Part shown: piece after piece, positions 3,228-62,161 of the stretch | Numbering within the stretch: position 1 is the stretch's first letter | Layout of the letters: each line of letters opens with the position of its first letter | Assembly (NCBI GenBank): GCA_036785375.1 | Contig: JAWMAR010000027.1 | Location: forward strand, 4,588,001-4,652,000 | Origin: Leucoraja ocellata | Taxonomy: Eukaryota | Reading direction: 5' to 3' | DNA: 64,000 nucleotides | Made by a program: the position numbers and the translations under genes | Notes under the pieces: model-generated | Databases searched by the model: none | Told to the model about the DNA's origin: nothing | What the model saw: only the letters and a program-made list of their open reading frames with translations

Positions 3228-4280
3228 GTCAGTATCCTTTATTTACAATCACATTGCTCATCTGTCATTGGAATAGTTTCATCTTTTGTGTCAGTAAAGT
3301 TTTCATCATGTTGTCAATGTTTAATAGTGAATGTCACTGGTGCCACATCCTGCAAAGCCTCATTGCGTCCTTTCAATTTTTATGTCTGCAAATAGTTTAC
3401 TCGTCATGTATCTCTCGAACACATTGTATGTAGAGTTTAATTTGAAGAGGAATTTAGCACCGAAGAAGGGTCTTGACTCGAAACATCACGTATTCCTTCT
3501 CTCTAGAGATGCTACCTGCCCCCTGAGTTACTCTAGCGTTTTGCTAGAGTAACTCAATCTAAGTCTAGAGGGGGAGGGAGCCCCATGGTGACTGAATGTG
3601 TCCTGTTGGTGATAGCGGCCTAAAGAAAGAGCTGTCGGCCAGGGGCTACAACATGTGCTGCAATAACAGCCACCTCAACCAGACCATGCAGCAGCTAGTG
3701 AAAATGAGCTTGCTGGTGTAGACAAGTGACATCGGCTCCTAGTTTTAAGGTAAAACGGCACAAAATGCAGGAGGAACTCGGCAGACTGAATCAGTCTGAG
3801 CAAGGGTCCTGACGTCACCTATCCATGTTCACCAGGGATGCTGCCTGACCTACTTTCTTACAACACTTGTGATTTTTTTTTTTTGCCTGAGATTCCATCG
3901 TCTGCAGTTCCTTGTGCCTTCATAAAAGACTTACTACAAACTCTGTGCAATGTGCAATTCTCAGTGTGCTGGCTGCCACAATTTTAATTAAGAGTTGGGA
4001 AGATTTTGTTTGAACCCTAGCCAATATTTATCTCTCAATCGACATCAATAACATTGATGTTTGAAGAATTACCACATCACTGAGTGTAGATTAGTTGCTG
4101 TGTTTCTAACAATATACCATTAATTATACATCTACTTTTACCAGTGCACTGGCCCCTTCTGTACCGTTTGAGACAGTAAAATATTTTGTGCTATTCTAAT
4201 GCACAGCTGATTCTGCACTGTTGATTACTTGCATCTACGACAAGAGAAAAATTATTTAAATCTCTTTCATAAAATCGAAG

Positions 4281-4397
4281 GTAGACCCAAAATGCTGGAG
4301 TAACTCAGCTGGTGAGGCTGCATATCTGGAGAGAAGGAATGGGCGACGTTTCGGGTCGAGACCCTTCATTCTGAAGAAGTGGCTCGACCTGAATATT
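4281..4397. mobile_element. Penelope-like pseudo-LTR fragment with inverted junction and hammerhead-like cores
   Basis: gtagacccaaaatgctggagtaactcagc...gacgtttcgggtcgagacccttc is immediately followed by ctgaagaagtggctcgacctgaa in the opposite orientation. Confidence 0.7.
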
Positions 4398-5309
4398 GTT
4401 CTATCATATTGCCTGTCTAATACATGTTTTAGCCCATGTTCTAAAGTCTGCAGATGCTGTTCTCATAGGGAGTCAGTAAATGGGTCTCGAGTAACTAGAC
4501 AATGCTGAACTAAAATTACCTTTTCTGGTGGAAAAGATGACCATTTTTGAACCATTCCTGTTTTTTGTATTTTTTACCCCTTTATCAAATTTAACTTTGT
4601 TTCCAGTCAAATTAAGTCAGGAACAATGTATGAAAGATGATAATTAAAGAAACATAGACTTGATTATGTAATGAAGATCCAACTGAGGTTCAATCTCGTT
4701 TAAGGTGCTGATGATAACAAAGGTTACTTTTTTGTGTGGAGTCGAACCACTTTGATCAATCAACCATGCTCATGGATATTCCAGGCATGGAGTTGACTAA
4801 ACAATCTTTTGCTCATCCACTCACTAGCTCTTATTTCGAGGGGAGGAAATTCAGAGGGGTTCCTTTCTTCTTCTATAGCTATCTAAGGGAACTTTAAGGA
4901 TGGTCACAGAATGAACAGTATTGGGTTTGGCCTTCTCAGCACACAAATTAAATTAATTCCTTACCATGAAACTGAAGGGGATATGATGGTCATGAAAGTG
5001 TCACACAGTGAGCTGAAGGATTAATGGGGTGCACTTGTCGACTTCCTTGAGCTTGAGAACCAGGCCGTGCATAAAACTACAGAGTGTGCTGCATGACCCT
5101 ATTGCTTTGCTTAATCACACTGTCATCTGCAAAAGCACTAACTTCCAATGTGTGTGCTAATTTTCTGGAAGTATATTTGCACATGTCAGTGATAATCCTA
5201 TTCTTGCTCACTGTTGGAAAAAGCACATCGAAATGTGAACACGTTTTGGTCAGGATAAGCACTTTTATCGGGATGCATCAGTTTGTTTTTGGACCAGTTC
5301 CATCCCAGA

Positions 5310-5467
5310 GTGCAAGAAATTGCAGAGTTGTGGGTGTAGCCCAGACCAACACATAAACCAACGTCCCTTCCATTGATTCTAGCATAATCAAGGACCTGTT
5401 TCTCCCCCGTCACTCACTCTTCTCCCTTTTCCTGTCAGACAAGAGGTACAAATGTTTGAAAACGCAC
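5310..5467 (+). mobile_element. Rex1/Babar-like LINE ORF C-terminal fragment
   Basis: Translates in pieces to RVVGVAQT...IIKD...HSLFSLFLSDKRYKCLKTH, the family's typical C-terminal motif. Confidence 0.6.
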
Positions 5468-5693
5468 CCGACCTGGGCGCAACAGCCAGACCGGGGGCAA
5501 GCGAGCCAACCTGGGAACTGCAGCTATTCGCACGGTATGCAGCCGACTTGGGAACTGCAGCCATTCGCGGGACATGCAGCCGACCTGGGTGTCATAGTGG
5601 GACCTCGGACAAGCGAGCCGACCTGGGTGTCACAGCCAGTCCTGGGGCAAGCGAGCTGACCTGGACGCTACAGCCAGTTCCGTGGCACACAGG
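5468..5693. repeat. GC-rich minisatellite, 6 units of 37-38 bp
   Basis: Core ccgacctggg (or near variants) starts at 5468, 5506, 5543, 5580, 5618 and 5656. Confidence 0.85.
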
Positions 5694-6159
5694 CTTTGGA
5701 GGTGTGTGGCGGTTGTCGGCCAAGTGAGAATAGCAGAGAGAACTGTTGCCTTGTCAGCAGATGCGCACAAAAGCTGGTATTAGTTTTGAAATTCTCGTTA
5801 TCCCTATTTTTGACCTGGCTGGGTGACCAGACAGTGAGGGGACCAGCTCAAGAGCAAAGATCATAGAGCGGAGCGGGTCAGTGGGCGATGAATAACAGGA
5901 CAGCGGGCGGTGGAGCTTACTCCTGTATCAGTGCGAGTAACCTCAATTGTTATTGTTATTCAATAAGATCACAACTGATGTAACTTTTCCCGGTGTGCTC
6001 CCATTTTTCCCACCATCTGTCCACCTGCCATCGCCCTCCACCCCCCACCCATTCAGTCATTCAGAATGGAGGAGATCTGGAAGCCATGGGCAAATTAAAT
6101 TGTTACTTTCTTTATTTTTACTTTTTATTTTTATTTTTTTGAGCCTGAGAAATTCGATG

Positions 6160-6248
6160 TCCCGCCAGCCTTTTTTCAAAATGTAGCACCTCAAAATGGG
6201 GGTGTGTCTTCGATGCAGGTGCGTCTTCAGAGCCGGCAAATACGGTAA
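6160..6248. mobile_element. Right end of a Tc2/pogo-like DNA transposon
   Basis: ggtgcgtcttcagagccggcaaatacgg|TA; the reverse complement CCGTATTTGCCGG... is the typical Tc2-type terminus with a TA target. No matching left end found. Confidence 0.55.
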
Positions 6249-7110: not shown

Positions 7111-7434
7111 TCTTTAGTTTAATTTTAGTTTGGAGAAAAACCAGGCCGATTGGCCCACCAAGTACTGACCATTGATTGCCTGTTCACACTAGTTCTATTA
7201 TTCTTTCCCCATTCAGCCGTTCCCCGCACATTTGAGGCAATTTTTATAGAGGCCAATTAACCTGCAACTCGCATGTCTTTGGGATGTGGGAGAAATCTAG
7301 AGCATCCCGAGGAAACCTACAGTCACAAGGAGAACGTGCAAACTTCACACAGACAGCATCCTGAGGTTGGGATTGAACCCGGGTCTCTGGCGCTGTGAAG
7401 CAGTAGCTCTATCAGTTGAGCCACTGTGCTGCCC
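7111..7434 (-). mobile_element. HE1-like tRNA-derived V-SINE (second degraded copy at ~7455-7655)
   Basis: tRNA-like head (gggattgaacccgggtctctggcgctg) and V-domain (ggagaacgtgcaaact; gggatgtgggagaaa) in antisense orientation. Confidence 0.8.
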
Positions 7435-10789: not shown

Positions 10790-11030
10790 ACAACTTCTTT
10801 CAACGACGATTAACTTTTGTCAGGTTGAAGGTGTACCTATGGGCACTCGAGTGTTGCCCAGCTATGCCTGCCTGTTTGTTGCATTCGTCAAACAAACCTT
10901 GTTCCAAACATACACTGGCATCATCTCAAAAAACTCTTTCCCTGCTACATTGAAGACTGCATCAAGGCTGCCTCCTGCACCCCTGCTGGACTCATTGATT
11001 TTGTTAATTCTGCCACTAACTTCCACCCAC
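10790..11030 (+). mobile_element. Penelope-like element reverse transcriptase fragment (degraded)
   Basis: QVEGVPMGTRVLPSYACLFV is a PLE RT motif (G.AMG...PSYA.LF); a YIED (YIDD-like) segment follows in another frame. Confidence 0.75.
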
Positions 11031-12140
11031 AGTATTGTCACAATATCGCCTATTCGTTCTCCAGAGAAGCTGCTTGACCACCGAGTTCCTCCAGAACTGT
11101 CTTAATTTGGCCATTTTGTTACTTATTCACGAGCCTTGCAGTCTGCTGCTGCATTTCCTTGTTTCAAAATTTACTGTAAATTTAGTATATAGTATATATT
11201 GGCTGTAAATGATCTGGGTGAATGTATGTCAATTTAACAATCTGGATGATTGTTATATACATTTTCTTTTAAGATTATATTAGGAACAAAACACAATTGT
11301 TGCTGTTTTATACATGTTTAGCTTTTTGATGATGCACTAGGAGTCTGCTAGTATATTTTTCATTTATGGCTTGTCGAAGATAAAGATTCAACTTGTGAAA
11401 ACATTTATTTTCTGTGAAGTATCTCTTGCAAAAACATTCCTGCTCCTTTCTGACATCCTAAATGCATGTTTGGCAATATAAAGTTTGACGGATATTGATT
11501 TTTTTTTTTTCACAGATCAATTTTTCAAGGTTGCTGGAACATAATTGGGCAATTTAGTTATCAAAATTGTTGACTTTTGCTACCAGTGGTTTTGTTGAAT
11601 CTCTTTCAAAAATTCCATTAGTGGTGTTTGGCTAATAAATATGTTACACTGTCTTTTCAAGCAAAGATGAGATCTTTATATTGAACACTTTGTTTGACAA
11701 AATGACATTTGACTCCAAATCCAGGAGGTATGCAATTAAAAATAGAAAATGCTGTAAATATACAACATGGCAGCATCAATAAAAAGAGAAACAGGTTGGT
11801 GACCTATTGCAGATATCGCCTTGAGAGTAGATCTTAAATATAAATGGGATTTACGTTTTTGCATATTTTCAATATCTGCAGTATTTTTATTTTCTAAAAG
11901 GTTTGCAAATGTTCATACTTAAGCGAGGTGGTTGTGGCTGATTATTTGAATGTGCTTCACAAATAATACAAGGCATGTCAGTGCTGTATCTGGAGCCGTT
12001 TTGTTATTTGAAGTTCTCTAAGCTGTGTGAGCCATCACCCAAATAAGACGAAACATTAAGCTTTTCCAGAAAACATTTAAAATTAGAATGCAAAGTTTCA
12101 TAAATCAATTTTATTTCCCCCTCACCCCCAAACTTTACAG

Positions 12141-12246
12141 GCTCCATGGCCCTCCTCTTGGAGTCGTGTCAAAGGCGAAGTCTACAATGTATCGGTGGCA
12201 AATGATGCCAGTAACAAAAATGTCACTTCAAACCCGAATGAATTGT
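12141..12246 (+). CDS. NEDD1: NEDD1 linker exon, phase 0 to 1 (APWPSSWSRVKGEVYNVSVANDASNKNVTSNPNEL)
   Basis: Acceptor actttacag|GCT and donor TGT|gtaagt. Open in the frame that joins the upstream phase-0 exon to the downstream phase-1 exon. The sequence itself is poorly conserved. Confidence 0.72.
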
Positions 12247-13136: not shown

Positions 13137-13247
13137 ATTCTTTGCAGGTTAGCAATTACACCACAAGCCAACCCCCTGCAAAATCCAGGAAAGTAATGTT
13201 TATTGCAACAAACAGCTTTGGGGAAATCTTTTCACCTATCAGATTGG
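13137..13247 (+). CDS. NEDD1: NEDD1 exon with the FSPIR phospho-motif, phase 1 to 1
   Basis: Acceptor ttctttttcag|AT and donor TTGG|gtatgt. Ends in NSFGEIFSPIRL, matching the NEDD1 SLGDMFSPIRD motif. Confidence 0.9.
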
Positions 13248-14029: not shown

Positions 14030-14850
14030 TATAGCCTTGGGATGAACTTGTTTGTGCTGACCAAGTTACCAAATTCAGCTAGCCCTCTTGCTTGCACCTG
14101 GCCTATATACCCCCAAAACCTTTCATCCATGTACCTGTCTCAATGTATTTTTAAAAGTTGTAATTGTAGCCAACTCGATCACCTCCGCTGATAACTTGTC
14201 CCATACATGCATCACCCTCTGTGTGGAAAAAGTTGCCCTTCAGGTCCCTTTAAAATGTTTCTCTTCTCCTCTCTTAAACCTTAACTTTTAGACTCCCATA
14301 TCGCGGGGGGAGACTGGCTATGTACCTTAATTTATGTACCTTATGATTTTGTGAACATCTAAGGTTATCTCTCAGCCTCCTACTCTCCAAGAAAAAAAGA
14401 TTCTGCCTCTCCTTCATAACTCAAACTCTCCAGACCCAGTAATGTCCTTGTAAATCTTTTTGCATCCTTTTTAGTTTAATATTTTTGAATTTTAATGTAT
14501 CTTCTCTGCACCTGCTATCTTGTGTCCCTCCTGATTTTCCTGTCGGGTATATTTTATACCCTCTATACTCAATGGATTAGCTTGCCAAATCCTGGCATGC
14601 TTCCTTTTTCTTATCTTTTTCTTAACCAGAGCCTCATTGTCTTGTGTCATCCAATATTCCCTATTCCTCCCAGCCCTGACCATCACTTTAACAGGAACAT
14701 TCTCATCCTGAACTCGTGCTATCTCATATTTAAAAGCCTCTCCCTTGCTTGATGTCCCTTTACCTACAAACAGCCCCTCTCAATCGACTACTGAAAGTTT
14801 CAGTCAAATGCCATCAAAATTGGTCTTAACCCAAATATAGGAATTCAACG
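14030..14850 (-). mobile_element. Old CR1 LINE fragments (3' end plus an ORF2 N-terminal piece)
   Basis: Reverse-complement CR1 3' motifs (accctctgtgtggaaaaagttgccc) and an endonuclease-region-like segment. Confidence 0.6.
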
Positions 14851-14946
14851 GTAGACGCAAAATACTGGAGTAACTCAGCGGGACAGGCAGCATCCCTGGA
14901 GAGAAGGAATGGGTGACGTTTCGGGTCGAGACCATTCTTCAGTCTG
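14851..14946 (-). mobile_element. Penelope-like pseudo-LTR fragment with hammerhead-like core
   Basis: Reverse complement reads ctgaagaatggtctcgacccgaaacgtcacccattcc...gctgagttactccag. Confidence 0.8.
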
Positions 14947-15794
14947 AAGTTTGCACGGTGCTGCAGCGGTAGAGTTGCCTTACTATCGTTATTTTTTTTG
15001 GAGGGGGGAGAAGGAGCAAGAAAATTATTTGAGACTTTCCCCATTGGAACTGATGTTTGCGGATAATTGTAGATGAGCAGATATAAAGGGTTATTGCATT
15101 AATGATTGGAATATATGTGGAATTCAAGGTTCAACCTGAAGCAGTGGCTTTCATGCAAGGCATTGTTAACTGTAGATAAATGGTTGCTTGGAGTCAAAGC
15201 TTCAAAGTTATCCAAAGTTAGACTGTGAATGTTGGATTGTTTACACAAGCCACACTTGACAACAGGTAGAATTGTGCAAATACATCAAGGTTGCAAGTAT
15301 TGTGATGGCAATAGGAATATTGAAATGCCTGATATTTGGGAGGAAAGGTGTGTACAAAGTGAACTGGAAAATCAGTTCTGCCAAGTAAAAAATGAATGAA
15401 ATGGTGAAGAGACAGTCGTCAGAGTACCAGTTGAACGCCGTGTGCAAACACATGGTCTATTCTGTGGAAGAAGCACTTGCTTACGGGATCTATAGCAGTG
15501 CAATGGTAACCATTGACATTGTAACATGACATGGGACATTATGTAATGTTCACTCGAGGCAAGATATCAATCATGAGATAGTTGTTAAAAAACAAATGGT
15601 GCGATTTTGAAATACAAGTCAGCAGCATTGAAGCTGACTGAAAGGTGTTGCCTGCAGGCAGTTAATCTAAAGAATAAATGGAGCCATGATGACGATTGCA
15701 ATGTAGTAGCTCAGAAAGATGATCCATTTATATCTGCCACAGCACTGGCAATGTGCAGAGACCATTGTGATGCCAAAACCAGGCACCTTTTCCG

Positions 15795-16630
15795 TCCAGC
15801 ATAGCAGAGGGATTGTTCCCATCACAACTATTTTGGAATTTCATCTCCACCATCACCTCTTCCCTTTCTTGCACCACCATCCAATGCAACTGCAGGAGGT
15901 GTAATATCTGCTTTACTACGTCTTTCCTTCCCACCATCCAATGACCCCTGCAGGTAAAACAACAATTCACTTGTTATATTTCCAATTGAGTGTCCTGTTT
16001 GGTGGTCATATCATGATGTCCAGATGAAGAGGTTAAGGGATGACTTGCTTGTGGAGTTAAGTGGGGAAGGGAGGAGGATGGAGTTGGTGGGGGAGGATGG
16101 AGAAGAGAGGGAGATGAAAGTGAGTGATAGGTGGCAGATTAGAAAGGGGAATTAAAAAGCAGAGGGTCGGAAGGAGTATGGGGACAATGAATAGATAGAA
16201 GAGGAAGTTGCCCAAATTATGAAAATTCAATGCTCACTCCATTGGATTGTAAACTACTCGGGCAGAATATGAGCTTGAATCTCATCCTGGCAGTGAAGCA
16301 GTCCAAGCCTGGACAAGTTGCTGTGAGTTGGGAAGGGGAATTGAAATGGCATGCGGTTGTCTGCTGTGCTCAGAGCCCAAGTTCTATGTGAATCGATTGT
16401 CTAGTCTACACTTGGTCTCGCCATTGTATAGGAGGCCCATCGGGTGCAATAGACTAGGTTGTTTGTGTTTCACATGGAAGGCTTGTTTAGGTCCCTAGAT
16501 GGTGGAGAGAGAGGAGGTGCATGGACAAGTGTTGCATCTTCTGTGGTTGTAAGAAAGTATGAGGGGTTGGGAGGGAATGGGGATAGGGAGGCATGAGTGC
16601 ACCAATGTTACGGAGAGCTTGGTCCCTGTG
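15795..16630. mobile_element. Degraded Penelope-like GIY-YIG region fragments (+ at ~15795-16010, - at ~16060-16630)
   Basis: Both pieces resemble the cleaner copy at 55820-56560 (PCNCRRC...; caggtaaaacaacaattcacttg). Confidence 0.6.
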
Positions 16631-48580: not shown

Positions 48581-48952
48581 AGCGCCTGGTCATTTTTTTT
48601 ACACCTACTCTGGTACTTGGTGGAAGAACCAAGAGTCTCTTCACATGCAGTTTGGTCGATTTCATGGAAGCACATTCATTGTGAACACTCTCCATGACTC
48701 TTGTTGGAGTGATCAAATTGTTTGCAAATTGGTGCCTGAGACAAACTACATTTGTTGGATCATTGAAAGCTTTGACGTGGCCTATTTTTGTACCAACGTT
48801 TTTGTTGATGCTGGTATTTTGAGATAGGATTGATCGAAGTAATAGATCAAATTAGGTAGTGGTTAATTCTGCTGCAATCTGCACCAGTCATGTTACAGGT
48901 GTGTGGATATTGCGGCAAAAGCAACATAACTGCAGGTCACCCATCAGTTCCA

Positions 48953-49520
48953 AGCTGTAGCTCAGTTGGTAGCAATCTCCATCTCTCAACTAAACATTTG
49001 TGAATTCAAAGGCCATTCTAGAGATTTGAGCATAGAAATGTAGGCTGGAACTATAGGCTTATACTGAGGATTGGCACAAAATGCTGGAGTCACTCATGCA
49101 GCATCTTTGGAGAAATGGTATAGGTGATGTTTCAGGTCGACACCCTTCAGACAGAGTCGGGGGAGAGGGAAACTAGAGATATGAAAAGGTCCAAAGAACA
49201 AAAAAATGAAAGGTATGAAAAGAACAAATCGAGGCTAGCAAGGATGGATGTTCAAGGAAAGGTGGAGCCCACAATGGTCCATTGTTGGCTGTGGAAGAGG
49301 TGATAACTAAGGGGTATAAACAGTGAAACTAAGCAGGATGTCAGTGCAATGTGGAACGGAAGAGTACTGAGTAATACTGAGGATCTGTTGATGCAACTGA
49401 TAAAGTGCCATATTTTAGATGAGATGTGCAAATTGAAGAGAGTACTCTTGTAAAGTATAGTTGATTTCTGGCTGTAGTCATGGGTAACATTTATCCATTA
49501 ACCAAATAAAGAAATCTACA
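48953..49520 (+). mobile_element. Ancient tRNA-derived Deu-domain SINE (SacSINE1-like), split by a PLE insertion at 49072-49373
   Basis: gctgtagctcagttggtagc...gagatttgagcatagaaatgtaggctg...atactgagga, continuing gtgccatattttagatgagatg. The PLE insert is flanked by TSD atactgaggat (49061-49071 / 49374-49384). Confidence 0.55.
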
Positions 49521-50708
49521 CTGAAACAGGTGGTGCTATTCTGAGAGTGAGGCTAAAGGACTAATTTACCAGCCAAGGGAATATGTTTCATAGAGGGGTT
49601 TATTAGAAGGGTACCCTTCGAGTAGCAATGAAGCATAACTGTTGCGATTATATATTTCATTTTTAATGATCTCAGTCAAACTTTCTGATTGAGGATATCG
49701 ATTGTGTCTGGAAAGTTGGCATGATTAACCAGGTTGCAAAGACCCTGTGCATTTTATAATATACTTAAATATCTTTGGCCTAGCATGTTTTTGATTGTTG
49801 CTTTGGGGCAGCTAATTATAGTAGGTCGCCTTTTAGCACAGCTCCGTGTACAATTAGGGTGGAGTTGCCCTTTAATACATGCCACACAAACAAGAGAAAG
49901 CAAGAATCAAATCGGCTAATCTGTAAAGTGCCTCTGCATACATTAAACAAGCACAAAGAGTGGATGGAATGTATGCTGGGCATGGAAATGAAATAATTTA
50001 CAGTTTATTGCATGGCTGCTGCCAAAGCTGTGATTGACAATTGAAAGTACAAAGTATACTTGTGCATGCACTGAATGTTAATTTCTAATGTTAATTTTTC
50101 CTTGGGCCTTGGCTTCTGACTGTAACTACTAGAACTGAGTTCTTTATTACCAGACCATTTTTTATATATCAGGTGCATTTTTGCACTTTCTAAAACCTTA
50201 AAGGGCTGATTGCCAATTAATAAATCAGACAGTTTTAATCTTCTTTCTTGTTTAATGCCTTTGTGAACACATCGGCTCAAAGTGCAATGTAGTTTAGTAT
50301 TTAAAAAAACAGATAATTTAATTCTTTGCCGAAATAGTCATGTTTTAAGCTAGACTGCATTTTGGTTATAGAAACTTTATTATTGGGGTATTAGAATTAA
50401 GCATGCTAATTTTTGAGCTTTAAGAAGTTCATCATTTGATGGCAGAACTAATTCTGCTCTAAAAAACATTGTTCGTGTGCCAAATGCATTTGAAGTTGTG
50501 GGCAAAGCTGAGCAGTAGTGTTCAACATATACACGGATGACACATAAAGTTTTCCTGCAGATGGGTAACTCCTGATGAATGTGGCCTGCCCTTGTACTGG
50601 CACTGTAATCTATGTGAGTAATGAAATGGCAGTGGGAAATGTGAAGGGGCCCACCTGATTTGGTCTGATGTCATGAAGCCACTTTTTGAATTTTCTGACA
50701 AACGGATT

Positions 50709-50962
50709 GTTTAGTTTAGTTTAGAGGTACAGTGCGGAAACAGGTCCTTCGGGCCACCGATTCCTCATAGACCAGCGATCCCCGCATACTCTCATTATGC
50801 AACTCGCATTGGGAGCAATTTACAAATTATACCAAGTTAGAAACCCATACGTCCTTGGAGTTTGGGAGAAAACCGGAGCTCTGGGAGAAAACCCACGCAG
50901 GTCACAGGGAGAACGTACAAACTCCATACAGACAGCACCCGTAATCAGGATTGGACCCGTCT
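50709..50962 (-). mobile_element. HE1-like V-SINE
   Basis: (ttag)n tail and aaacccacgcaggtcacagggagaacgtacaaactcc. Confidence 0.85.
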
Positions 50963-51924
50963 CTGCCTCTTATTTGCCGGTTTCACCTGCGTTTCCATGG
51001 ATATGTGCCAAATAATTCTAACCCCCCCAGATATTTGTTCAGTATCCTCCCACCAACCTCTCTCCGAACCAGCCCCTTAAGGTCCTGAAGACCACTTGAC
51101 TGAAGCCTCAATGAATCTCATCTCTACCAATGGTGGAAGGAATGGCTTTTGCTTGCGTTCGGTTGTGCAAGGCCGGTTCTGTGAGCGAGATGTACTTAAA
51201 CCATGCTCAAACCATGAGCTTACTCCCCTGTACATCATGTAATGTATCTTAACTGATGCACAATTTTCAGGCCAATGAGTCCAACTTTTCATCGGCATAA
51301 GATAGACACAAAATGCTGGAGTAACTCAGTGGGACAGGTAGCATCTCTGGAGAAAAGGAATGGCTGACATTTCAGGTTGAGACCCTTTCATAGGCATATT
51401 TACTTTTTGTGCATCAAATAAGAAAGCTTCTCACTCCATATGTGATGCATTTCAATTCCAGTGTATTGTAAACCAACGGGAACCAACTCTTTGCTAAGTT
51501 GCAGGACATTATTTGGAGAGAGATGTATATTTTGTTAATGTTTGATCCCATCCTGTGCAAATCGATGTTTTAGACCGATGAAAACGGGGAAAATGGATTT
51601 CACAAGTTTGGCCATATTACCAACAATCTCTCTGGGCAGTTTTCACTCTTTTTCAGACGTGTGATGATTTTAAATTACGAATATTGGCAGCAAAATAGAT
51701 TTCCCTTTGGGAATTTCTCTACACGGAGCACTGAGATGTATCATCTGCTACACCACAAGTCCATCTGCTGCACCAGGACTTCAAATCTGCATCAGCAACA
51801 ATAAAATATATCCTTTATCTCTGATTGTTGGACCACGTTCCTGCTAAAATGTCCAAAGCCCTTTGCCTGAGTGGGTGGAAAACAGTAATCACGATGCATC
51901 ATTACCTTTCTGAACCAGCCTATG

Positions 51925-52180
51925 GGATCTGTAATTAGCTTTTTTTCTTCTTTTTCACTCTCCTTTTCATCTCCAGCCTTCTCCACCCAACTTCCAATCA
52001 AATACCCGTCACCAGGCATTGTCTCGCTCCCACCTCTTTTCCAGCTTTCTTTGTTTCCCCCTCCCCCCCCCACCCGACTATAACCGGTCTGAAGAAGGGT
52101 GGCGACCCGAAATGTTGCCAATCTACATCCTTCAGAGACACTGCCTGACCTACTGAATTACTTCAACACTTTGTGTTTTA
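51925..52180 (+). mobile_element. PLE pseudo-LTR with hammerhead-like core at 52089
   Basis: Pyrimidine-rich pLTR, then ccggtctgaagaagggtggcgacccgaaatgttgcc...ctgcctgacctactgaattac. Confidence 0.7.
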
Positions 52181-54085
52181 CTTCAATGTGTGTGAAATGT
52201 GGCCAAATCATCTGCTGAGCTGTGGGACACATGAGCTTGCCAATTAAATCTGCTCTTTGCTTGAGCAGGTGGAGCAAACATCCTCCCAGAATCGGGTCCA
52301 ACCAACTTGGCACAGTGCGGAGCCCTCCCATTGTAACGCTCCAGGAGGCAGGGTTTACATGCCGCTAGTTGGAACTAACTATCAAAAAGCTATAAAGCTC
52401 ATGAAAGTGTCTGACATTTCCGAACATTGAAAAAACTTCAAAATTTTGGACAAAAAAACTTCTGTTCCATTTAAAAAAAAAAAAAAGATAATCCTATAAA
52501 CAACACAAACTCTAAATAATTGAGATGCATTAAATTCTGTTTAAGTTAACAATTCAATGAAAAAACATGTCAATCACCTCATGCAGTCTACTGATGCAGG
52601 TCTGGATGGCAATTTACTCGGATTTCCATGATTCCAACATTGGACTGTAATTGTAAAATTGACACTTCCAAGTTTGGGCTGAACCTTTCCACAGTTGTAG
52701 AGGCAAGTTACAAAAGTTCACTGCAGAAGTTCCTGCATTTCTGAAGATAGTGGCTCCAATACATCATTCATCACTTAAACTGGAACCATTTTTTCCATTT
52801 TGATATATTAGAGTGGTGGTGGAAATGAGAAACTTAAGTTACGTGAAGTTAGAATGATTCTCCTTGAAAGAAGATTAACAGGAGATTTAATAAAAAGGCA
52901 GATAGGGGGAAAAACTGTTAAAGAAATTTATGCCTACAGGTTCAGCATAGTTTATCAAAGAAGCAGAGGGAAAATTGAGGTCTTTTTTAATTAATTTTAT
53001 AATTTAGAATGCATTGCTTGAAGGGATGATGGAAGCAGACTTAACACTATCATTCAAAATGAAAAGAGCTCACTGCTTAAATAAGACAAGATACAGAGTA
53101 GAGGTATGATGTGGATATCTCTTTTTGAAATACGTACCAAACAGCAACCCTAATGGACTCTCCTGTACTGCATGAAAAGATCTCTACCCTCTTTTGGCTC
53201 TTTTTTTTTTGCAGAATGGACTGGTTTGCTTTTCTTGCAGTTGCTGCGGATTGCTTTTAATGTCTTCACCCGATGTTTCTATCACAGTGTATTCTTGGTT
53301 CACCTTTTGACTCTAAGCATAGACTGGGCTTGGCTGTTCTATGCAGAGGTGAAAACCTTCTCTATAAGCAATGGTGTGGAATGCTCATGGGAGTAATCTT
53401 GGAGGTCCGCTTTCTCTGTTAATTCATGACACTATCTTTGTTTGTTGATGTACTTCTCTTCTTTACTTCTCTTAAAAGTCTATTTTTGGTGCCTAGTTCA
53501 ATATCTTGTTTGCAGGCCTAAGTGACCATCTTGAATCCACCTCATAGGTTTGGGTGGAGGAAGGAGTTTTTGCCTAGCCTACAGGATTGTGATTGCAACA
53601 ATGCAGCACATGCATTTGCCATGGCATGCTGAGGTGTACTCATGTGCCTGGAGCTTGAGCCATCTGGAAAGGTTAGACACGGTGTTAACTTCATTACTGT
53701 TTTGGATGGGGAATGCATTTTCTTGTGTCTGAATGTATGTAGACTGCCATCTTGACACAATGCCCTCCATTTTATGTTGCATGTCAGTGTGGAGTCATCT
53801 TGGCCAACAGGAACTGCCAGTAGTCAGAGCACCAATGTGGCACCTCATGCGCACTGACAGAAACATTAAGAACTAACATGTTTAGTAATGATTGTAACAA
53901 TTCCCAGTTGAAAGCCTAGACCATTCAAGAGTCATAATCACATCTGGATTTGAGTGAATTTTCTATGTATCCTTTATAAATCCTGTTGCCCATCTTCAAT
54001 AGCTCTACTCCCTTGAGCGGTAGATTTGAAGCTGAAGAGCTCAAAATCATCAAGCCATTTCTCAGTGCTTATCCTCTCTATTAGC

Positions 54086-54372
54086 CTTGTTCAGTTTAGT
54101 GATACAGCATGGAAACACTCCCTTCGGCCCACTGAGTCCATGCCAACCAGCAATCACCCATGCATTAGTTCAATCCTGTCCTAGGGCCAACTTACAAAAG
54201 CCAATTAACTTACAACCCTGCACGCCTTTTTGGGACAAAACAGGAGCACCCGGAGAAAACCAAGGCAGTCACAGGGAGAACGTACGAACTCCGTACAGAC
54301 AGCACCTGAAGTCGGGACTGAACCTGGGTCTCTGTCGCTGTAAAGCAGCAAATCTGCTGTGCCATACCATGC
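54086..54372 (-). mobile_element. HE1-like V-SINE
   Basis: Same family as 33939-34246 and 62162-62458. Confidence 0.85.
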
Positions 54373-55819
54373 ATTATGCCCTGTTGCCATTGATATATCT
54401 GGGAATTGCAAGGATTCCCTTCTGCTATGAAACCCATTGTGTACATCTTCCTTGAAGTAAGATGTGGATTTCTCTGCTAAAATGTTTTGAATATTATGAA
54501 GTGAATTTGTTTCAAACATCTGTTACCATTCACATGTCTGTGAGGAGGTCAAGTGTTTCCCTGTGTGTATTAAAGCCAATATTTCAGTACATATTGAGGA
54601 TACACACTCTTGTGCATCAGAAAATAGATGCATGATTCAACTCTTATTATTCATAACTCGTATAAATATATCCCTGTAAAAAACAAAGCAAAATATTAAT
54701 GGCTATCAGTGCAATGGAGTGTATCGTGGACTGCATTTTCTTGGGTCACTCATCTTTTCATGGTCTGCTGTACGAGCAGTGTTGAGAATCTAACCTTTCC
54801 GCATGTACTCTTCTTAATCACTCAAACTGCTTTATTTTCTGAGATTTTGTGGTTATGTTAATAGCCCTCTTGTTTAATTTATTTCTACGTTAACCATGGC
54901 AGGTGGTATTTATCTCATCGTAGCTGCTATCAATAATCGCAGTTCTGATTTTCTCAATTCTGTCACATTCATCGAAGCAGCCAGACATTCCCCATTAATG
55001 GACACTGTCCTATTAATCATAACCCGCATCTTAATGTGTGCCCAATATAGATCTTTGTATCTAAAATTAACAGCTAATTCCTTGATGTGATGGTCCTAGA
55101 AAGTGTGATTAAAGTATATCCTTTGCAGAAACTGCTGTCATGTTTTTTTTTAAAGAGATAAACAATACCCAAATGGTGAGTATTTCAACTATGGATCCAA
55201 TATCTAGCATATATCCCTTGTGTGTCCAATAACTAGAAATATATTGCAGCATTCAAATCTGTCTTGATCTTTAGATTACGTACCTTGTATCTGTGTACAT
55301 CATAGCTGCATAATAGCAAAATACAAAACAAAACCACATTGTGTTGGCAGTTATTGCACGGATGAGCTGATAATGGAGATGGTTGTTGTCCTAGAGGAAA
55401 AATCTGTAAGTGTACACAACAAGTGTCCCATGGCCGATGTGTGCTATTTTGAGGCCTATGTTCTAAAGTATATTCTTTTCATGGCAAAGGAGCACTCTGA
55501 TGCTCAAACTCTCAACTCCATTAGCTGCTTCATCCTACTTTAGCATTCAGTTGATTCAATTTTTCCTTACTTGAATTTTACTGTATTGTGATTCTTGGCA
55601 ACAACAATCCTCTGGGGTGGTTAACGCGATTATCTTGACCTGAAACATATTTGACCCAAGGCACCACCTGAAGCAATTTAACTATACCAGGAACAGCATC
55701 CTGGAGAACCAAGGAGTATGTGCTTTGAGAACAGAGCATTGTGATCACTAACACTTGTCCTGAAGGTTAGGACCATTTTGATTTCAAACTCAAGTAAAGC
55801 CTTGATCTGGACTGCACTT

Positions 55820-56558
55820 CGTCCCACCCTGCTTCCTGTAAGGACTCCATCCCCTACTCCCAATTCCTCCGTCTATGCCGCATCTGCACCCAGAATGAGG
55901 TGTTCCACACCAGGGCGTCGGAGATGTCCTAATTCTTCAGGGAACGGGGGTTCTCCTCTTCTGCTATAGATGAGGCTCTCACCAGGGTTTCTTCTGTACC
56001 CCGTGACTGCTCTCTTCCCCCCCCCCCCCCCCCCCCCACTTGCAATTAGGGCAAGTCCCCCTTGTCCTCACATTCCAACTGACCAGCTGTCACATACAAC
56101 AAATAATCTTCCAACATTTTTGCCACCTCCAACGTGATCCCACCACTTGCCACATCTTCCCATCTCCTCCCCTGTCTGCTTTTCGCAGAGACTGCTCCCT
56201 CTGTAACTCGCTGGTTAATTTGTCCCTTCCCTTTTAGAACCACCCCCTCTCCGGGCACTTTCCCTTCCAACCGCAAGAAATGCTACACTTGTCGCTTTGC
56301 CTCCCCTTCCTTTCTGCTCTGAAACTCATTGTGTACATCTTCCTTGAAGTAAGGAGTAAGGACCCAAGCAGTCTTTCCAGGTGCGGCAGAGGTTCACCTG
56401 CACCTCCTCCAACCTCATCTATTGCGTCCGCTGCTCTAGATGTCAGCTGCTCTACATCAGTGAGACCAAGCGTAGGCTTGGCGATCGCTTCGCCGAACAC
56501 CTCTGCTCGGTTTGCAATATCCAACCTGATCTCCCGGTGGCTCAGCACTTCAACTCAG
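55820..56558 (+). mobile_element. Penelope-like element ORF fragment (RT thumb to GIY-YIG endonuclease)
   Basis: SIPYSQFLRLCRICT...; RQRFTCTSSNLIYCVRCSRCQLLYISETKRRLGDRFAEH...PVAQHFNS, a GIY-YIG domain with CxxC. Confidence 0.92.
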
Positions 56559-57311
56559 CACATTAAATACATCCATGCTGATATTTGTCTTATAGTCAAA
56601 GTGCAACCAGGCTGATTTTATATGTCTGGAAAACACGAGATATTAAATTTGCATAATTTACAGAATTTGCCTCGGTTGGCACAGGAGCAGAAATATAACC
56701 TGGATTTATGTTGATGTTTGATTGGCGCTACAGGGAAGAATTAGAATAGTGACTGTGGGAATATATATTATATAAATTCTGCACATTCGTTGTTTACCAA
56801 TATTAAATATTAAATATAGGAATTGAGATGAAGGAAAATGTGTTAAATGGAATGATGGTTCAGCATACTAATTAGGAAAGACGTGAGATTATTATGGGCA
56901 GGTGCATGTAGCAGCCAACAGTGTCTGCACTTTTAAAAAGGCAAATAGCATACTGAGTTCCTTTAACTGTCAATCAAATCAGGTTTAATTATGAGTTCAT
57001 AAAAGACAATCTCAGGGCATATGGAATCATTTCAAAGGCTCTTACTTGATAGAGAAATGCCTGTTAAAATTTGTGTTTACAGTGAAGTCTTTTCTAAGTT
57101 GTGGTTTAAGTGCAGGTTAACAGGTTATCTGGGTTTCAGGTTTTCCGACCTTGGGATTTTTATGTGAATGACGGTGGTTGTAATTAAGGTCATTGATGGT
57201 AAGGGAAGGTGGCTCAACTCTCTCCATAGACGACCATTACCATAAACAATGTGAATGACGCAAGCGACATTTGCTCAAGATTGGAAATCGCTCCAGTCGA
57301 GCACATAAGCA

Positions 57312-57660
57312 AAGATATGCCCAAATGGCTGGAATAACTCAGCGGCTCAGGCACCATCTCCGGAGAAAATGGACAGGTGACTTTTCGGGTCGAATCCCTT
57401 CAAACTCTCATTCCCCTGAAAGTCAGGGGAGAGGGAAACTGGAGGTAAAAAAAATGTTCAGAACAAATCAGAGCTGGCACCGGTGACCAAGGAAAGGTGG
57501 AGCCCACAATGGTCCATTGTTGGCTGTGGAAGAGGTGATAATGAAGGTACATATGTGAACAATGGAAATGGCAGGACAACTAAGGTGGGGGAGGGATGGA
57601 GTGAGGGGGAATGTAGGGGTTACCTGAAATTATAGATATCAACATACATACTGCTGCTAG
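57312..57660 (-). mobile_element. PLE pseudo-LTR plus ORF end
   Basis: Shares caaggaaaggtggagcccacaatggtccattgttggctgtggaagaggtgataa with 49253-49306. Confidence 0.75.
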
Positions 57661-58937
57661 AGTAACACAGCGGGATTGGTGCTGCGTTGCTTCATTATTG
57701 GAGATGAAGGGAACACTTCAATTCAACACTTTCCACCCCCCCCCCCCCTCCTGACTTCATGTGGGATGTGATGGGGTCCACTGTTAATCAACGGCTTATG
57801 AGACGGCCTTGTCTTAAGCCTAAAATGTTGGTTTCCTGTCGCAACGCATGTTCTATCGTAAAAATTCAGAGAGTTGTACAGTAGCAGAGCCATCTTGTTG
57901 GAACGGTGGAAAATTAAACTAGTACTATAGTACAAAATGGCTGTGGCTACCACCAACCATTTGCCCCTCATCCTTGGCTGTCCTGAACTCCACATTTTTG
58001 TTCTGTTTATTGCATTTCACTTGATTGTCATCCTACTGGGGCACACTCAGCAATACTGCAGGTTTTACATCTATATCTCTGTCCACTTTTTGTCCATGAC
58101 AAACGTGTCATTGAATTGCATTGTTTTGCATTCAAGGATGCCTTCCCTCCACTCTTTCTTGAAAAGGAGGCACGCAATGGCGTAAACAGCAGTCATCCAG
58201 TACAGTACAGACATGACCTTGCCCACATGGAAGAGACTGTTCAGTTTTACCAAAGCATCTATTACTGAGGGTGCAGCAGGAGGACAGAAAGCATGCTCTC
58301 TGATCAAATCATCTTTCTCATATTCCACTGGCCCTCATCCACCTGACTGTTCTGATTTAGAAGCTCAATTTGGTGTAAATCAGCACTTCATCATTATCTC
58401 TACTTTGTCCCAATGACTTTGCTGGGCTATAGTAGAAGAACAAGACTACCACATAGATGAAGAACTACCATCAGTCTATTAGAAATACTCAGCCAGGCTC
58501 AGATACTGACACTGTGTATGTAATTTTGGGTAAGCTTCCTCAGTGGGATCTGCTGGATGACCACACATCTCACCACCTCAAAGGATGGGGCTTCCTGCAG
58601 AAGATTTGGATGAAGATTTTGATGGGGATAGTTTATGAAAAGTGCATTAGTACAATGAAACATTAGGTGTAAAGGCAGCCTTGTCAGAATGCCTGTGTGC
58701 AAAGTCATGGAGTATGGAGGAGTGCTGCACATGGCATTGTGCAGAGTTTGGAAATGTTTGTCTACGCCAATAACTCACTCACAGGCACAATCCAAATCCA
58801 GTGTTTGATGGCCCAATGCCCCAGGTGCATTCCAAATAACACAAGCAGCAGCTTGTGTTAACACATTTTGCCATTGTGTTAACTTATTAATTTTCTCCCA
58901 GCCACTGAAAGTATTGGAGGCAAGTTAAAGTGTACTC

Positions 58938-58972
58938 GGTCTGAAGAAGGGTCTTGACCCTGAAACGTCACC
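58938..58972 (+). ncRNA. Minimal type-I hammerhead ribozyme-like motif in a PLE pseudo-LTR (58938-59032)
   Basis: ggt-CTGAAGA-[aGGGTC tt GACCCt]-GAAA-C-GTC-acc: intact catalytic core, paired stem II, 3-bp stem I (ggt/acc) and palindromic ACGT stem III. Activity is untested. Confidence 0.6.
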
Positions 58973-60523
58973 TATTCTTTTTCTCCAGAGATGCTGTCTG
59001 ACCCGCTAAGTTACAGTAGCTTTTTGTGTCAATCTGAGGTGTGCTATCATTGGTAAGTAAAGCATGGGGATTCTCCAACATCTGTGACACCTCTCATTGA
59101 ATGAAACCCACTTAATTTGTGATGCCTTGCAATTTGGAATGCACCTGTAGACTAATGGACTGCAGTCGCAAACCCATTCCACCATCTCAAGGTATGGAAA
59201 CCATTGTTTTGAAAAGCCCGTTATTTTTATTTAAATTTTGTCAGTTATTTTAAATGTACAGCATTTGTGCCCTTCTTAACAGTGGCTGGTAAATTAAGAT
59301 GTTGGAAATATGTCCCTTCTATCATCTGTATCGCCATTTGCAATACAGCCCTTGCTCTGCTCCAAGGTGCAGCTGTATCTAAAGCAGGTAACAGATTGAA
59401 ATGTGGGCTTCTGACTGAGGTACAGGGATCTTGCATATTATTGAGGTTAAGATAGGAAAAAGATTACTCCCTAATATTGCATCTCACACTGAAAATGTAT
59501 GCAGCTAGAAAAAAAAAACTGATATCGTATCAAACATGAGGCCTCCATATTTTGAATTATATGCAAGTCTTTTTTCCATATTTTTGAATAGGATTTGTAA
59601 TAAGTGGACTAGAATTGGCACTTGGATGCATTGGCATTGAATGTATTGACAGCTTTTACTGAGAGTGCCTCTGCATGTATGGGGGTTGACACGAAGACAT
59701 ACAGAACCGGAGATTTTACTCAGCATGTTCTGTAAGCTACTCGTGTGGATAGCAGTGGAAGAAATGGATTGTTATCCTATGACCTTTGTAATCCTGCCAA
59801 TTTCATTTTGTTTTTGGATGCACAATTATAAACTACATGCATCATTTAATTGATACCCTGACTTGCACCAGAACGAGTCAAGATGGCAAAACTCATTCTA
59901 AAGCTGTGTTAAGTCTTATTTGCCAGTAGAATTTAAAATTAAATATTTCTCTTTATGTGGAACTTAATGGTTTAGTACGGTATTTTTTTTAAATATGCTA
60001 CCTTTTGTGTCATTGGCAAATTTTGTAGAAATATCTGGGTAGTGATTAACTGATCTATGGCCATTTCCTGTATGCCACTCCAATTGGCTTTCATGCTGCT
60101 GTCCCATGGTTGTTTTGGAGGGATAATAAGGTTTGAAGGTGTAAATATTAGAACAGCGTATAAATTGCATGTTTAATCTAGCACCTTCAACCCAGTAGAA
60201 TATGCAGTGTTATAAAACATAATGACATATGTGATTGAAGTTATAAGTGCATCATGTGCAAATGTGAGTTCGTTATTTGAATCCATTGTGAAATGCCTGC
60301 TTTTATGATCTTTTATGTAATGATTTTAGCTCTGGATTTGTAACCTTGAACATTATCAATTACAAAACGTACAGATATGTACGTGATGCAAAGTCTCTTT
60401 TGGCTTTTGGAACTTTCTATGCATCATTGCTCCAATCCAGAGTGCTCTTGGTTGCATTTCACCATTCAGCATGCCAGCTGAAAGGTAATGATCATTTTTA
60501 CAAGCAGTATTACATATACTGCA

Positions 60524-60679
60524 GGTACACAAAAATGCTGGAGAAACTCAGCGGGTGCAGCAGCATCTATAGAGCGAAGGAAATAGGTGACGTTTCGGGC
60601 CGAAACCCTTCTTCAGACTGATAGGGGGTGGGGGGGGGGGGGGGGGGAGAAGGAATGAAAAAGGGGAGGAGCTGCAATA
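60524..60679 (-). mobile_element. PLE pseudo-LTR insertion with intact hammerhead-like core and 13-bp TSD
   Basis: Reverse complement cagt-CTGAAGA-a-gggt ttcg gccc-GAAAC-GTC-acct. TSD tacatatactgca at 60511-60523 / 60680-60692. Confidence 0.85.
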
Positions 60680-61269
60680 TACATATACTGCAACTACTTT
60701 TGAATTATCCTTTTGGTGCAATTTCTCTCTCGATTTTCCCCTTTGGGTAAAATCTTTCCACGATTCCCTTTCAATTTCTTCCATGCATTTTTCTCTCTTG
60801 GCCCATGTTATATTAGCTGGTCATTTATCTCGTCTCGCTGTCTTGCACTCAGTGCTGAATTTTGAAATGGTGTTCAATATTCATTGGGTGCGAAGCATTT
60901 TGAGATGTTCTTTGAATGTGATAAAGTACAATATATTCTCTGCTTGTCTACACACATGCATATTTATGCATGAACCAGTGCGATAAATAGCGAAGTATAT
61001 AACCATTGAACAATGGCTGAAATTCATTTCCCATGTCTTTCTGAAAGATGCAAGGTGGATTTGTCATGCTGAACACACATTTTAGTTTTCTCGAAAACAA
61101 GGCTGATTGAAATATGGTAACTGCGCTAAAAGCACAGGGGAAGATTGTACTTAACTCTGCCGAGTGTTTGACTCCTCATTCACACAATTGCAATAAACCT
61201 TTGCATCTGCATGATTCCTGCAAATCCTTGAAGTGTGAAGGCACAGTAGTTCAGTTATTCGTGCTCCTC

Positions 61270-61562
61270 TGACAAGGGTTCGGTTTTGTCTCCGACATTG
61301 TCAATGGTGAGTTTGCACATTCCCTTTGATATCATGTGAGAGTCCTCTGGGTGCTCTGGTTTCCTCCCACAGCCCAAAGGCAGGTAGTTTTGTAGGCCAA
61401 TTGTCCACTGCATACTGTCCTTAGTGTGCAGATTAGTGGTAGAATTTGGCAAGATTTGATGGGAATGTGGTAGAATAAAATAGGATTTGCTCGGACTAAA
61501 GTGTTTGATCATTGCAGCTGACAGTTGCCCAAGGGCTCGTTTTTGTGCTGTATGATTCTATG
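61270..61562 (+). mobile_element. Degraded V-SINE
   Basis: gagtttgcacattccc...gggtgctctggtttcctcccacagcccaaag...tgtgctgtatgattctatga. Confidence 0.7.
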
Positions 61563-61648
61563 ATTACGGCCATCCCTTGAAATGGAAAAGTCCCTGAGAA
61601 TCTCAGGCAATGGCTTTTATTTTCAATACTTGGCATAGAGAATTGGCT

Positions 61649-61808
61649 GTACACCAAAATGCTGGAGAAACTTCAGACTGAAGAAGGGTTTCGGCCCGAA
61701 ACGTTGCCTATTTCCTTCGCTCCATAGATGCTGCTGCACCCGCTGAGTTTCTCCAGCATTTTTGTGTACCTTTGATTTTCCAGCATCTGCAGTTCCTTCT
61801 TAAAAAAA
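61649..61808 (+). mobile_element. 160-bp PLE pseudo-LTR/tail insertion with short inverted end and perfect 15-bp TSD
   Basis: TSD catagagaattggct at 61634-61648 / 61809-61823; core ctgaagaagggtttcggcccgaaacgtt at 61678. Confidence 0.9.
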
Positions 61809-62161
61809 CATAGAGAATTGGCTTCTGGGTTCAGTCCTGATGACACCAGGTGGCTGAGGCCATTTCTATTGTAGCTGAATGTCTATGAAACTATTGCAAC
61901 CAGTATATTGAAAAAGTTTAAATACATTCAAATGACTTTATAAAAACAAATTATTGAAATAATGACACTTATTTCAAAACATGATCTTGTGTAAATTATG
62001 TAAAACCATTATTAGTGACGTTAGAAAGAGTAAATTCCCACCAAGCTTTACTTGTGTTTTAAATAATGGTTGGTGACCACAATGTAATGGATGGGGTTGC
62101 ACAAGAAATAGTTGATCTATAACATCAGCCAGATATGAACCATAATTCGGTCCTTCAGTTT

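Follow-up and report, generated by a model that had tools for sequence, protein, structure and literature searches.

Hammerhead-motif repeats in a 64-kb window of a skate genome read as 5′-truncated insertions of an endonuclease-bearing Penelope-like element

We analysed a window of 64,000 nucleotides of Leucoraja ocellata DNA (contig JAWMAR010000027.1, positions 4,588,001 to 4,652,000 of the forward strand), in which an initial annotation, made from the sequence alone, had noticed about 20 dispersed hammerhead-ribozyme-like cores. The cores are real, and the copies that carry them are very probably 5′-truncated insertions of an endonuclease (EN)-bearing Penelope-like element (PLE) with a Neptune/Nematis-type linker, present in this batoid genome as several lineages of different age. 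The earlier assignment of the cores to a minimal type-I hammerhead motif in the PLE pseudo-long terminal repeat (pLTR) is borne out by a GIY-YIG endonuclease C-terminus attached to one motif and by PLE insertion anatomy. Earlier publications already describe the motif class, the dimer model and the anatomy of the insertions; the density of copies and the breakpoints of the insertions add something to them.

Throughout, an arm is one oriented piece of the repeat, so that a head-to-head insert counts as two arms, and signed positions are numbered from the predicted cleavage site after H17, which places C3 of the core at −28. All 21 coordinates of the initial annotation carry a member of one repeat family. 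Twenty stand as given, and the remaining one, 22271, lies about 20 nt upstream of the actual motif at 22291. An nhmmer profile built from the window copies returned 37 matches at E ≤ 1, tail-only pieces included, and the control gave two matches in total over five shuffled windows, the best with an E value of 0.27. The refined list contains 20 of the 21 noted positions with E values from 1e-34 to 2e-4, and 4371 (+) is weak at 0.023. The exact pattern CTGANGA-N13-GAAANNTH occurs seven times against 0.03 expected, in no case in 100 shuffles, and each of the seven is a family member; a loose core pattern gives five matches against 0.98 expected. The motif at 58941 has one extra base, so it is caught by a gapped pattern and not by the exact one. 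PLE-derived sequence amounts to 31 intervals and about 5.7 kb, or 9% of the window, with about one motif per 3 kb and a PLE end every 2–3 kb, so the high copy density claimed earlier holds within the window. Insert sizes of about 33–450 bp fit the 60–450 bp first proposed. For the comparisons below, 22 motif-bearing arms were aligned, leaving out the weak 4371 (+), the partial 17469 (+), 31028, 32440 and the tail-only pieces.

The consensus of these copies fits the PLE minimal type-I hammerhead, with CUGANGA, GAAA, NUH and an extra base at 9.1, in the usual hammerhead numbering and under the NUH rule. Stem II consists of 4 bp and a tetraloop, and 89% of the stem II cells pair across the 22 copies; its closing pair 10.1–11.1 is GC in ten copies and GU in seven. 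The palindromic 15.2/16.2 positions, without a loop 3, read ACGT in the consensus and are intact in eight of the 22, the losses being mostly CpG transitions. All invariant core bases are kept in 8/22 copies, so the listed cores do belong to the family, but most of them are broken. Only three of these also retain the ACGT palindrome together with each of the four stem II pairs: 58941 (+), 60616 (−) and 61678 (+), where stem I has 3, 2 and 0 bp, respectively. Stem I is weak in general, as first noted. It has 3 bp in three copies, 2 bp in five and 0–1 bp in 14, although several of the 5′ strands are junction or flank and not element. Where it is readable, it mostly has CAG instead of CGG, which leaves 2 bp as the commonest form; CGG is found at 58941, the copy already credited with 3 bp, and at 52089, and an A at position 2.1 abolishes the stem in several copies. 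The published consensus, CUGANGAH-G..C-GAAAN-palindrome-NUH (PMC4209133), is matched by the skate motif.

Several lineages can be separated. Lineage A comprises 11 copies with a mean identity of 81%, and the younger lineage B four copies with 93%; an old divergent lineage at 22291 has a CTGATGA core and varies at N7, the free position. The two subfamilies had been described as having different, covarying stem II hairpins. They differ instead by a one-sided U-A to U-G change plus a loop change. The core lacks an AAG unit at 47812, 49150 and 57402 (−), and probably at 4371 (−), in carriers that do not group in the tree; this reflects either a slippage hot spot or source elements that were mobile despite an incomplete core.

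The link to PLEs is most direct in the insertion 16824–17270 (subfamily B), which holds an endonuclease C-terminus, a stop codon, a 3′ untranslated region (UTR), a hammerhead motif and a 3′ end within one unit. On its minus arm (17148–16824), the GIY-YIG C-terminus at 17026–17148 (tblastn to the Leucoraja protein P0007, 78% over 40 amino acids, E 5e-14) is followed by the stop at 17023–17025, a pyrimidine-rich UTR of about 107 nt, the motif from 16915 to 16888 with G12 mutated, and a short 3′ end that stops at 16824. Fused to the 5′ end of this arm is the plus arm 17142–17270, an inverted copy that has both motif and tail, and a 16-bp duplication with one mismatch (16808/17271) frames both. 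The attached C-terminus thus ties the hammerhead motif to a PLE.

The coding fragments agree with this. The query frame 56360–56563 has nine relatives among 13 candidates, the best of them (79%) from Mobula and Leucoraja. These relatives have a reverse transcriptase (RT), a CX4CxxC linker and a GIY-YIG domain; their Pfam matches to GIY-YIG and RVT_1 are mostly below the curated cut-off, and Pfam gave no match for the window PLE fragments alone. Searched against the window with tblastn, the relatives recover broken coding pieces at 10815–11029, 15769–16001, 16154–16644, 17026–17148 and 55807–56560, and the fragments at 10815, 55807–56560 and 17026–17148 align to P0001, P0005 and P0008. The proteins closest to the PLE fragments are batoid. 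A CX2-5CxxC linker between RT and EN is intact in P0001, P0002, P0005 and P0008 and at 15876, and at 56248 its first cysteine has decayed. This linker points to a Neptune/Nematis-type PLE (PMC8557442), a clade assignment taken from the linker and not from an RT tree. The C-terminus of the zebra-shark P0005 reads SLMKGLRPKR and resembles the translated motif in a weak alignment (E 0.016), a weak hint that its gene model may read through a PLE 3′ UTR and that sharks would carry the motif in the same place. At 10815–11098 (+), an RT-core fragment (10815–11029) is fused directly to a pLTR piece that begins about 6 nt before the cleavage site; the junction suggests a large internal deletion or a template jump.

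The ends of the copies also follow PLE anatomy. First, the 3′ ends of the 35 arms, as placed by hand, fall into two groups, 19 at +60 to +75 and nine at +94 to +105, with the interval +76 to +93 empty and the other seven arms shorter; 49057 could be assigned to either group. The two 3′ ends, at about +65 and +100, are some 35 nt apart and correspond to the optional PLE tail of 30–40 bp. Second, target site duplications (TSDs) of 8–16 bp are present. They are exact at 33795 (11 bp), 60524 (13 bp) and 61649 (15 bp), and reach 10–16 bp with one mismatch at 16824, 35443, 38928, 49057 and 51300; many older loci have none above chance (28 regions examined). In a control of 400 random pairs, 79 gave chance matches of 7–9 bp and four reached at least 10 bp, so only the longer TSDs carry weight. 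Third, six inserts are head to head (3747, 4271, 16824, 17418, 26590 and 61649), and 14842 has a 7-nt inverted stub. The tail is restricted to one arm in five of the head-to-head inserts. Four of the inverted junctions (3791, 4371, 14942 and 61673) coincide with TCAG-W-CTGA, a palindrome that overlaps stem I and C3–A6. An ORF start in the tail was considered and dropped, since the ATG frame, read by eye, is open in lineage B and closed in A.

The 5′ ends of the 35 arms range from −282 to +66. Sixteen of them fall at −37 to −26, where about 1.3 would be expected, and the breakpoint rate there is 0.083 per base at risk against 0.006–0.008 elsewhere. The size of this excess is rough, because the interval was picked after the data were seen and short pieces escape detection more easily; many of the breakpoints were positioned manually. 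The truncations themselves are real, because the flank upstream of the cluster copies lacks the pyrimidine-rich UTR (pyrimidine fraction 0.28–0.60, against 0.80–0.96 in the UTR of longer copies) and because three non-inverted cluster copies, at 33795, 38928 and 43292, have ends defined by TSDs. A single 5′ end, that of 41967–42040, lies within 4 nt of the cleavage site. Clustering just upstream of the core, with about one end at the cleavage site, suggests that uncleaved RNA served as the template. Likewise, unprocessed RNA is the main substrate of the anole PLE, whose ribozyme mutants insert normally (PMC11167929). A shared exon upstream of the short copies, as expected from a spliced template, was searched for and not found.

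The same cluster could be read as a subset of non-autonomous, SINE-like (short interspersed element) solo pLTRs transcribed from the pLTR and mobilised in trans, with their own start about 30–36 nt upstream of the cleavage site, or, in a variant, as marking where the PLE mRNA begins, a 5′ end that would be copied if reverse transcription starts in the 5′ pLTR. A 12-nt interval that holds 16/35 starts, three of them at the TSD-defined ends, could indeed be an RNA start, and Adineta pLTRs can act in cis on unrelated sequence (PMC3846280). We regard this as unlikely, since the starts scatter across the 12 nt and are common to several lineages, short copies do not form groups apart from long ones in a tree that is itself mostly unresolved, seven arms extend further upstream, one into PLE coding sequence, and the palindrome accounts for four of the cluster junctions.

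The initial annotation had seen a retrozyme/SINE-like population. This is not supported, as there are no tandem units in the window, the 5′ ends are not fixed, as those of a SINE would be, but range from −282 to +66 and extend into PLE coding sequence, and no tRNA gene was found. For a tRNA-, 5S- or 7SL-derived polymerase III head as in SINEs, neither a tRNA gene nor an Rfam match was found; decayed heads can escape such searches, and the upstream sequence is PLE 3′ UTR. None of the eight tandem-repeat rows in the window involves the hammerhead unit. Non-LTR retrozymes share with these copies the type-I hammerhead, the short units and the pLTR ancestry (PMC7229834; bioRxiv 10.64898/2026.07.22.740005); however, they are 150–450 bp tandem repeats, typically with canonical hammerheads and expressed as circles (PMC7229834), whereas the units here are not in tandem and have the minimal motif and PLE-type ends. 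By definition a retrozyme is tandem, with at least two consecutive complete hammerheads (bioRxiv 10.64898/2026.07.22.740005; PMC7229834). The copies could still be monomers of such an element, spread by rolling circle through small circular RNAs, because pLTR-derived retrozymes are reported in 20/31 vertebrates, one chondrichthyan included, and many of them are monomers (bioRxiv 10.64898/2026.07.22.740005). Besides the missing tandem repeat, the four same-strand pairs that lie 309–553 nt apart are all decayed or partial, the ends lie off the cleavage site, and inversions and tails indicate PLE-type insertion, which makes this origin very improbable.

Conservation of the motif differs before and after insertion. 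Between lineages A and B, differences affect 0/11 invariant core positions, 3/28 motif positions (tolerated sites), 16/65 downstream positions and about 19/40 upstream positions. This suggests that the motif was constrained in the source elements, although two lineages and 11 sites are all that is compared and conservation is just as high in parts of the downstream block. After insertion the core decays neutrally: with inclusive ranges and base-specific rates, lineage A has 7/104 core changes against 7.4 expected (p = 0.84), or 4/94 against 6.3 without the junction copy. An apparent protection of the inserted core (2/99 changes against 49/580 in the flank, p = 0.02) was an artefact of trimmed 5′ ranges and is gone with inclusive ones. 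At CpG sites, three of which lie in the motif, 26 of 83 had changed, 21 of the 26 by transition.

A number of observations weigh against our reading. No full-length PLE is found in the window, and what is said of the source elements is deduced from the 22 copies. Rfam returned no hammerhead among three matches for the whole window or nine for 58800–61900; its hammerhead models expect a stem III hairpin. Stem II likewise covaries no more than shuffles do. Its score over the 22 copies is 0.152 against 0.157 for shuffles, 293 of 500 of which are as high, in a test of low power because the copies are decayed descendants of a few sources. An RNAalifold consensus of the 22 copies has 0 pairs. In three single-copy folds, pairing of the purine-rich core with the downstream pyrimidine tract keeps the stem II probability at or below about 0.01, and the double-hammerhead fold lies 24–34 kcal/mol above the minimum-energy fold even as an artificial tandem dimer, by energy models that treat multiloops poorly. 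A distal stem I extension and a conserved downstream helix, which we had also considered, are unsupported by the folds. The post hoc choice of the breakpoint interval and the two-lineage basis of the core comparison belong with these points.

Given the usual 2-bp stem I and an active fold that is strongly disfavoured, the motif may have lost its catalytic activity in the source elements as well, and may have been kept for protein binding, as a self-priming palindrome or as a splice acceptor. The CAG at stem I in most readable copies, its loss through an A at 2.1 in several, and the AAG unit missing from four cores (one of them probable) would all fit a dead motif. Nevertheless, lineages A and B agree at each of the 11 invariant positions, and variation in the old lineage affects the free N7. 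In addition, published PLE hammerheads with a 2-bp helix I are known from Drosophila virilis, Culex and Oikopleura (PMC4209133), and the anole PLE cleaves only with protein, while its hammerhead mutants insert normally (PMC11167929). Minimal hammerheads are described as inactive as monomers and little active as dimers (PMC4209133), and one of nine Xenopus dimers was cleaved (bioRxiv 10.64898/2026.07.22.740005). We therefore consider a dead motif a real but lesser possibility. In the window, no two intact same-strand motifs lie close together.

Under the preferred reading of truncated PLE insertions, and by analogy with the anole PLE, the PLE protein would nick the target and start reverse transcription internally at either of two sites, on a template that would usually be uncleaved RNA. 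The TCAG-W-CTGA palindrome immediately 5′ of the core would be the commonest place for synthesis to stop or be resolved, and would also join two arms head to head. In the source elements, the motif would be constrained and able to cleave solely as a dimer, probably assisted by protein. The dispersed copies would be neutrally decaying passengers, almost all inactive.

The best-preserved copies lie towards the end of the window. The solo copy 58935–59042 (+) has the best motif (58941–58969), with an intact core, an ACGT palindrome, 3 bp in stem I and an extra C in stem II. At 60524–60679 (−, subfamily B), about 60 nt of 3′ UTR and no tail are framed by the exact 13-bp TSD (60511/60680), and the motif 60616–60589 is intact in core, palindrome and stem II with a 2-bp stem I. 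The head-to-head insert 61649–61808 (subfamily B) has its tail on the plus arm only, a TCAG-W-CTGA junction, an exact 15-bp TSD (61634/61809) and, at 61678–61705 (+), a motif with intact core and stem II and no stem I. Four further copies are solo or older ones. The solo at 33795–33927 (+) runs from −30 into the tail, with G12 mutated and its 11-bp TSD at 33784/33928, and that at 38928–39023 (+) has a decayed core and a 10-bp TSD with one mismatch. The solo at 43208–43292 (−) starts at −36 and has an intact core, a broken palindrome, a 20-nt internal deletion and an 8-bp TSD. The older copy 51959–52190 (+) keeps about 120 nt of 3′ UTR, an intact core and a 3-bp stem I, with C15.2 mutated.

Other head-to-head inserts are more decayed. 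That at 3747–3913 has a palindromic junction, GAAA deleted and the tail on the plus arm; 4271–4398 contains two decayed motifs (4345 and 4371); and 17418–17582 is joined at GAC, with stem II of the minus motif broken and a plus arm that lacks the 5′ core and has the tail. The copy 14842–14956 (−, subfamily A) has an intact core with G10.1 mutated and no stem I, and carries its inverted stub at the 5′ end. Subfamily A also includes 3458–3556 (+), with core U4 mutated, and 35913–36087 (+), which has 3′ UTR and tail with C3 mutated. At the 3′ end of the former, a perfect 13-bp fold-back (3530–3556) is arranged tail to tail, unlike the usual head-to-head inserts. The old lineage is represented by the decayed 22288–22366 (+) and its relative 32440–32528 (+), also decayed. 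The AAG unit is absent from the cores of 47724–47815 (−) and of 49057–49338 (−), which belongs to a long-3′-UTR lineage; 57306–57724 (−), of the same lineage, has a disrupted 5′ core and an endonuclease-like C-terminus (near 57630–57650) found by eye only and not by tblastn. Cores are likewise decayed or partial at 31028–31110 (+), without most of the motif, at 39242–39359 (+), an older copy with a tail, and at 51300–51387 (−), which is truncated inside the core, starts at stem II and has a 13-bp TSD with one mismatch. The copy ending at the cleavage site, 41967–42040, is on the minus strand with its 5′ end at −2.

Several pieces lack the motif. About 48 nt at 35443–35491 (−) comprise only the part downstream of the motif, with a 10-bp TSD (one mismatch); 36846–36888 (−) is a short piece from the same part; and 16774–16815 (−) is a short tail-region piece, apparently the target of the 16824–17270 insertion. 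The insertion at 2424–2457 (−) consists of tail alone (about 33 nt, +66 to +99), has a 6-bp flanking repeat and lies inside another repeat. As for the coding remains, 15769–16644 holds older PLE fragments of linker and GIY-YIG, one on each strand (15769–16001, +; 16154–16644, −), and 55807–56560 (+) covers the RT thumb, the linker with its decayed CX4CxxC and the N-terminal part of GIY-YIG (tblastn to P0001, E 9e-49), with no hammerhead attached.

Part of the window is occupied by a NEDD1-like gene (3027–26923, +) that begins upstream of it. Eight exons were mapped, at about 3027–3227, 12135–12242, 13139–13243, 17772–17926, 20464–20547, 22555–22704, 23338–23409 and 26819–26923, and the first of these matches proteins of a sawfish (90% identity) and a skate (89%) over part of its length. 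The gene matches shark and ray proteins annotated NEDD1-like, and may be the NEDD1 orthologue or a paralogue. At least seven copies, several in sense, had been placed in its introns; we count 11 motif-bearing arms, seven of them in sense and none intact. The sole sense copy with an intact core belongs to the head-to-head insert 26590–26787, where the motif 26656–26683 has a broken palindrome and two of four stem II pairs. Co-option of intronic copies to cut or regulate a host pre-mRNA such as that of NEDD1-like might be imagined from the seven sense arms, one of them 30 nt from the last exon. None of the seven is intact, the core has no excess conservation and no intact dimer partner lies nearby, so this is far-fetched, and judged from sequence any effect of the copies on NEDD1-like seems unlikely. 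At 26590–26818, about 30 nt separate the end of the insertion from the last-exon acceptor, and the insertion boundary has a branch-point-like CTAAT. Within the repeat, a pyrimidine tract ends in CAG or TAG 16 nt past the cleavage site, for example at 14942 (−), 26656 (+) and 60616 (−), and a CAG follows another pyrimidine tract at −31; both tracts resemble 3′ splice sites. Helix I is where an intron of Drosophila virilis Penelope ends (PMC4209133).

Beyond this gene, in 26926–64000, minus-strand open frames at 27069–27380, 48519–48851, 55581–55766, 58074–58334 and 59248–59463 are possibly exons of a large gene converging on NEDD1-like; Pfam, a protein search and Atlas did not identify it. Should this gene exist, one of its introns would contain the near-intact 60616 motif in sense orientation. 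A LINE (long interspersed element) reverse-transcriptase 3′ end lies at 37636–38676, with related pieces near 17331, 28596, 35023, 36415, 41300 and 63143, all of which may be CR1/L2-like. A second dispersed family of about 270–300 bp (7244–7434, 33938–34242, 50698–50965, 54087–54363 and 62165–62460), of which one copy adjoins the PLE insert at 33927, is probably a SINE. A GC-rich tandem repeat with a 19/38-bp period occupies 5504–5678, in a NEDD1-like intron.

Compared with known systems, the skate copies are closest to the minimal hammerheads of metazoan PLEs (PMC4209133). They share CUGANGA with the extra 9.1 base, G10.1–C11.1 and GAAAC-GUC, the palindromic 15.2/16.2 positions without loop 3, the pyrimidine-rich 5′ flank, and the location 3′ of the endonuclease, mostly in dispersed single copies of truncated elements. 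With a helix II of 4 bp and a helix I mostly of 2 bp, they stand at the short end of the published range (PMC4209133). With the EN+ PLEs Neptune and Nematis (PMC8557442, PMC3846280), the shared features are the RT, the CX2-5CxxC linker, the C-terminal GIY-YIG, 5′ truncation, an inverted 5′ copy with a palindromic junction, a 30–40 bp tail at one end and TSDs; the full-length copy is what differs, being missing from the skate window. Neptune and Poseidon are the PLE groups reported in vertebrates (bioRxiv 10.64898/2026.07.22.740005), and palindromic junctions in Adineta PLEs have been read as self-priming (PMC3846280). The anole Poseidon PAc likewise has two RT start sites downstream of the hammerhead, which define a tail, and insertion ends away from the cleavage site, but PAc belongs to a different clade, and its ORF starts within the hammerhead (PMC11167929). 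Cartilaginous fish are absent from Table S1 and the Figure S3 alignment of PMC4209133. The one chondrichthyan of the retrozyme survey and its families are named in the supplement of that preprint, which bears on novelty (bioRxiv 10.64898/2026.07.22.740005). Among the matches listed, no paper on this PLE family in cartilaginous fishes was found; Repbase and Dfam, outside the search, may hold the family.

Tentatively, batoid genomes may contain 10^5 to 10^6 PLE hammerhead remnants, many more than the counts published for other vertebrates, with breakpoints that would record an uncleaved template, and a third stem I pair may have been traded for the TCAG-W-CTGA palindrome, which covers the 5′ strand of the ribozyme and would prime or join the inverted arms; on present evidence we would not bet on it. 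The numbers come from scaling 3, 8 and 22 motifs per 64 kb to 2.2 Gb, the size of the little skate assembly (PMC10115646), which gives about 1, 3 and 8 × 10^5 by extrapolation from one window. Published PLE hammerhead counts are 4,000 in coelacanth and 9,000 in Xenopus, obtained with a stricter descriptor that required helix I (PMC4209133), and are thus not like for like. The hammerhead is dispensable for PLE insertion in vitro (PMC11167929), and Naiad PLEs are described without one (PMC8557442, PMC11167929). If the trade were true, a ribozyme sequence would gain a second role at the cDNA level. The dense PLE ends of such a genome would provide many breakpoints for computational tests of whether cleaved RNA is ever copied and of how inverted arms are formed.

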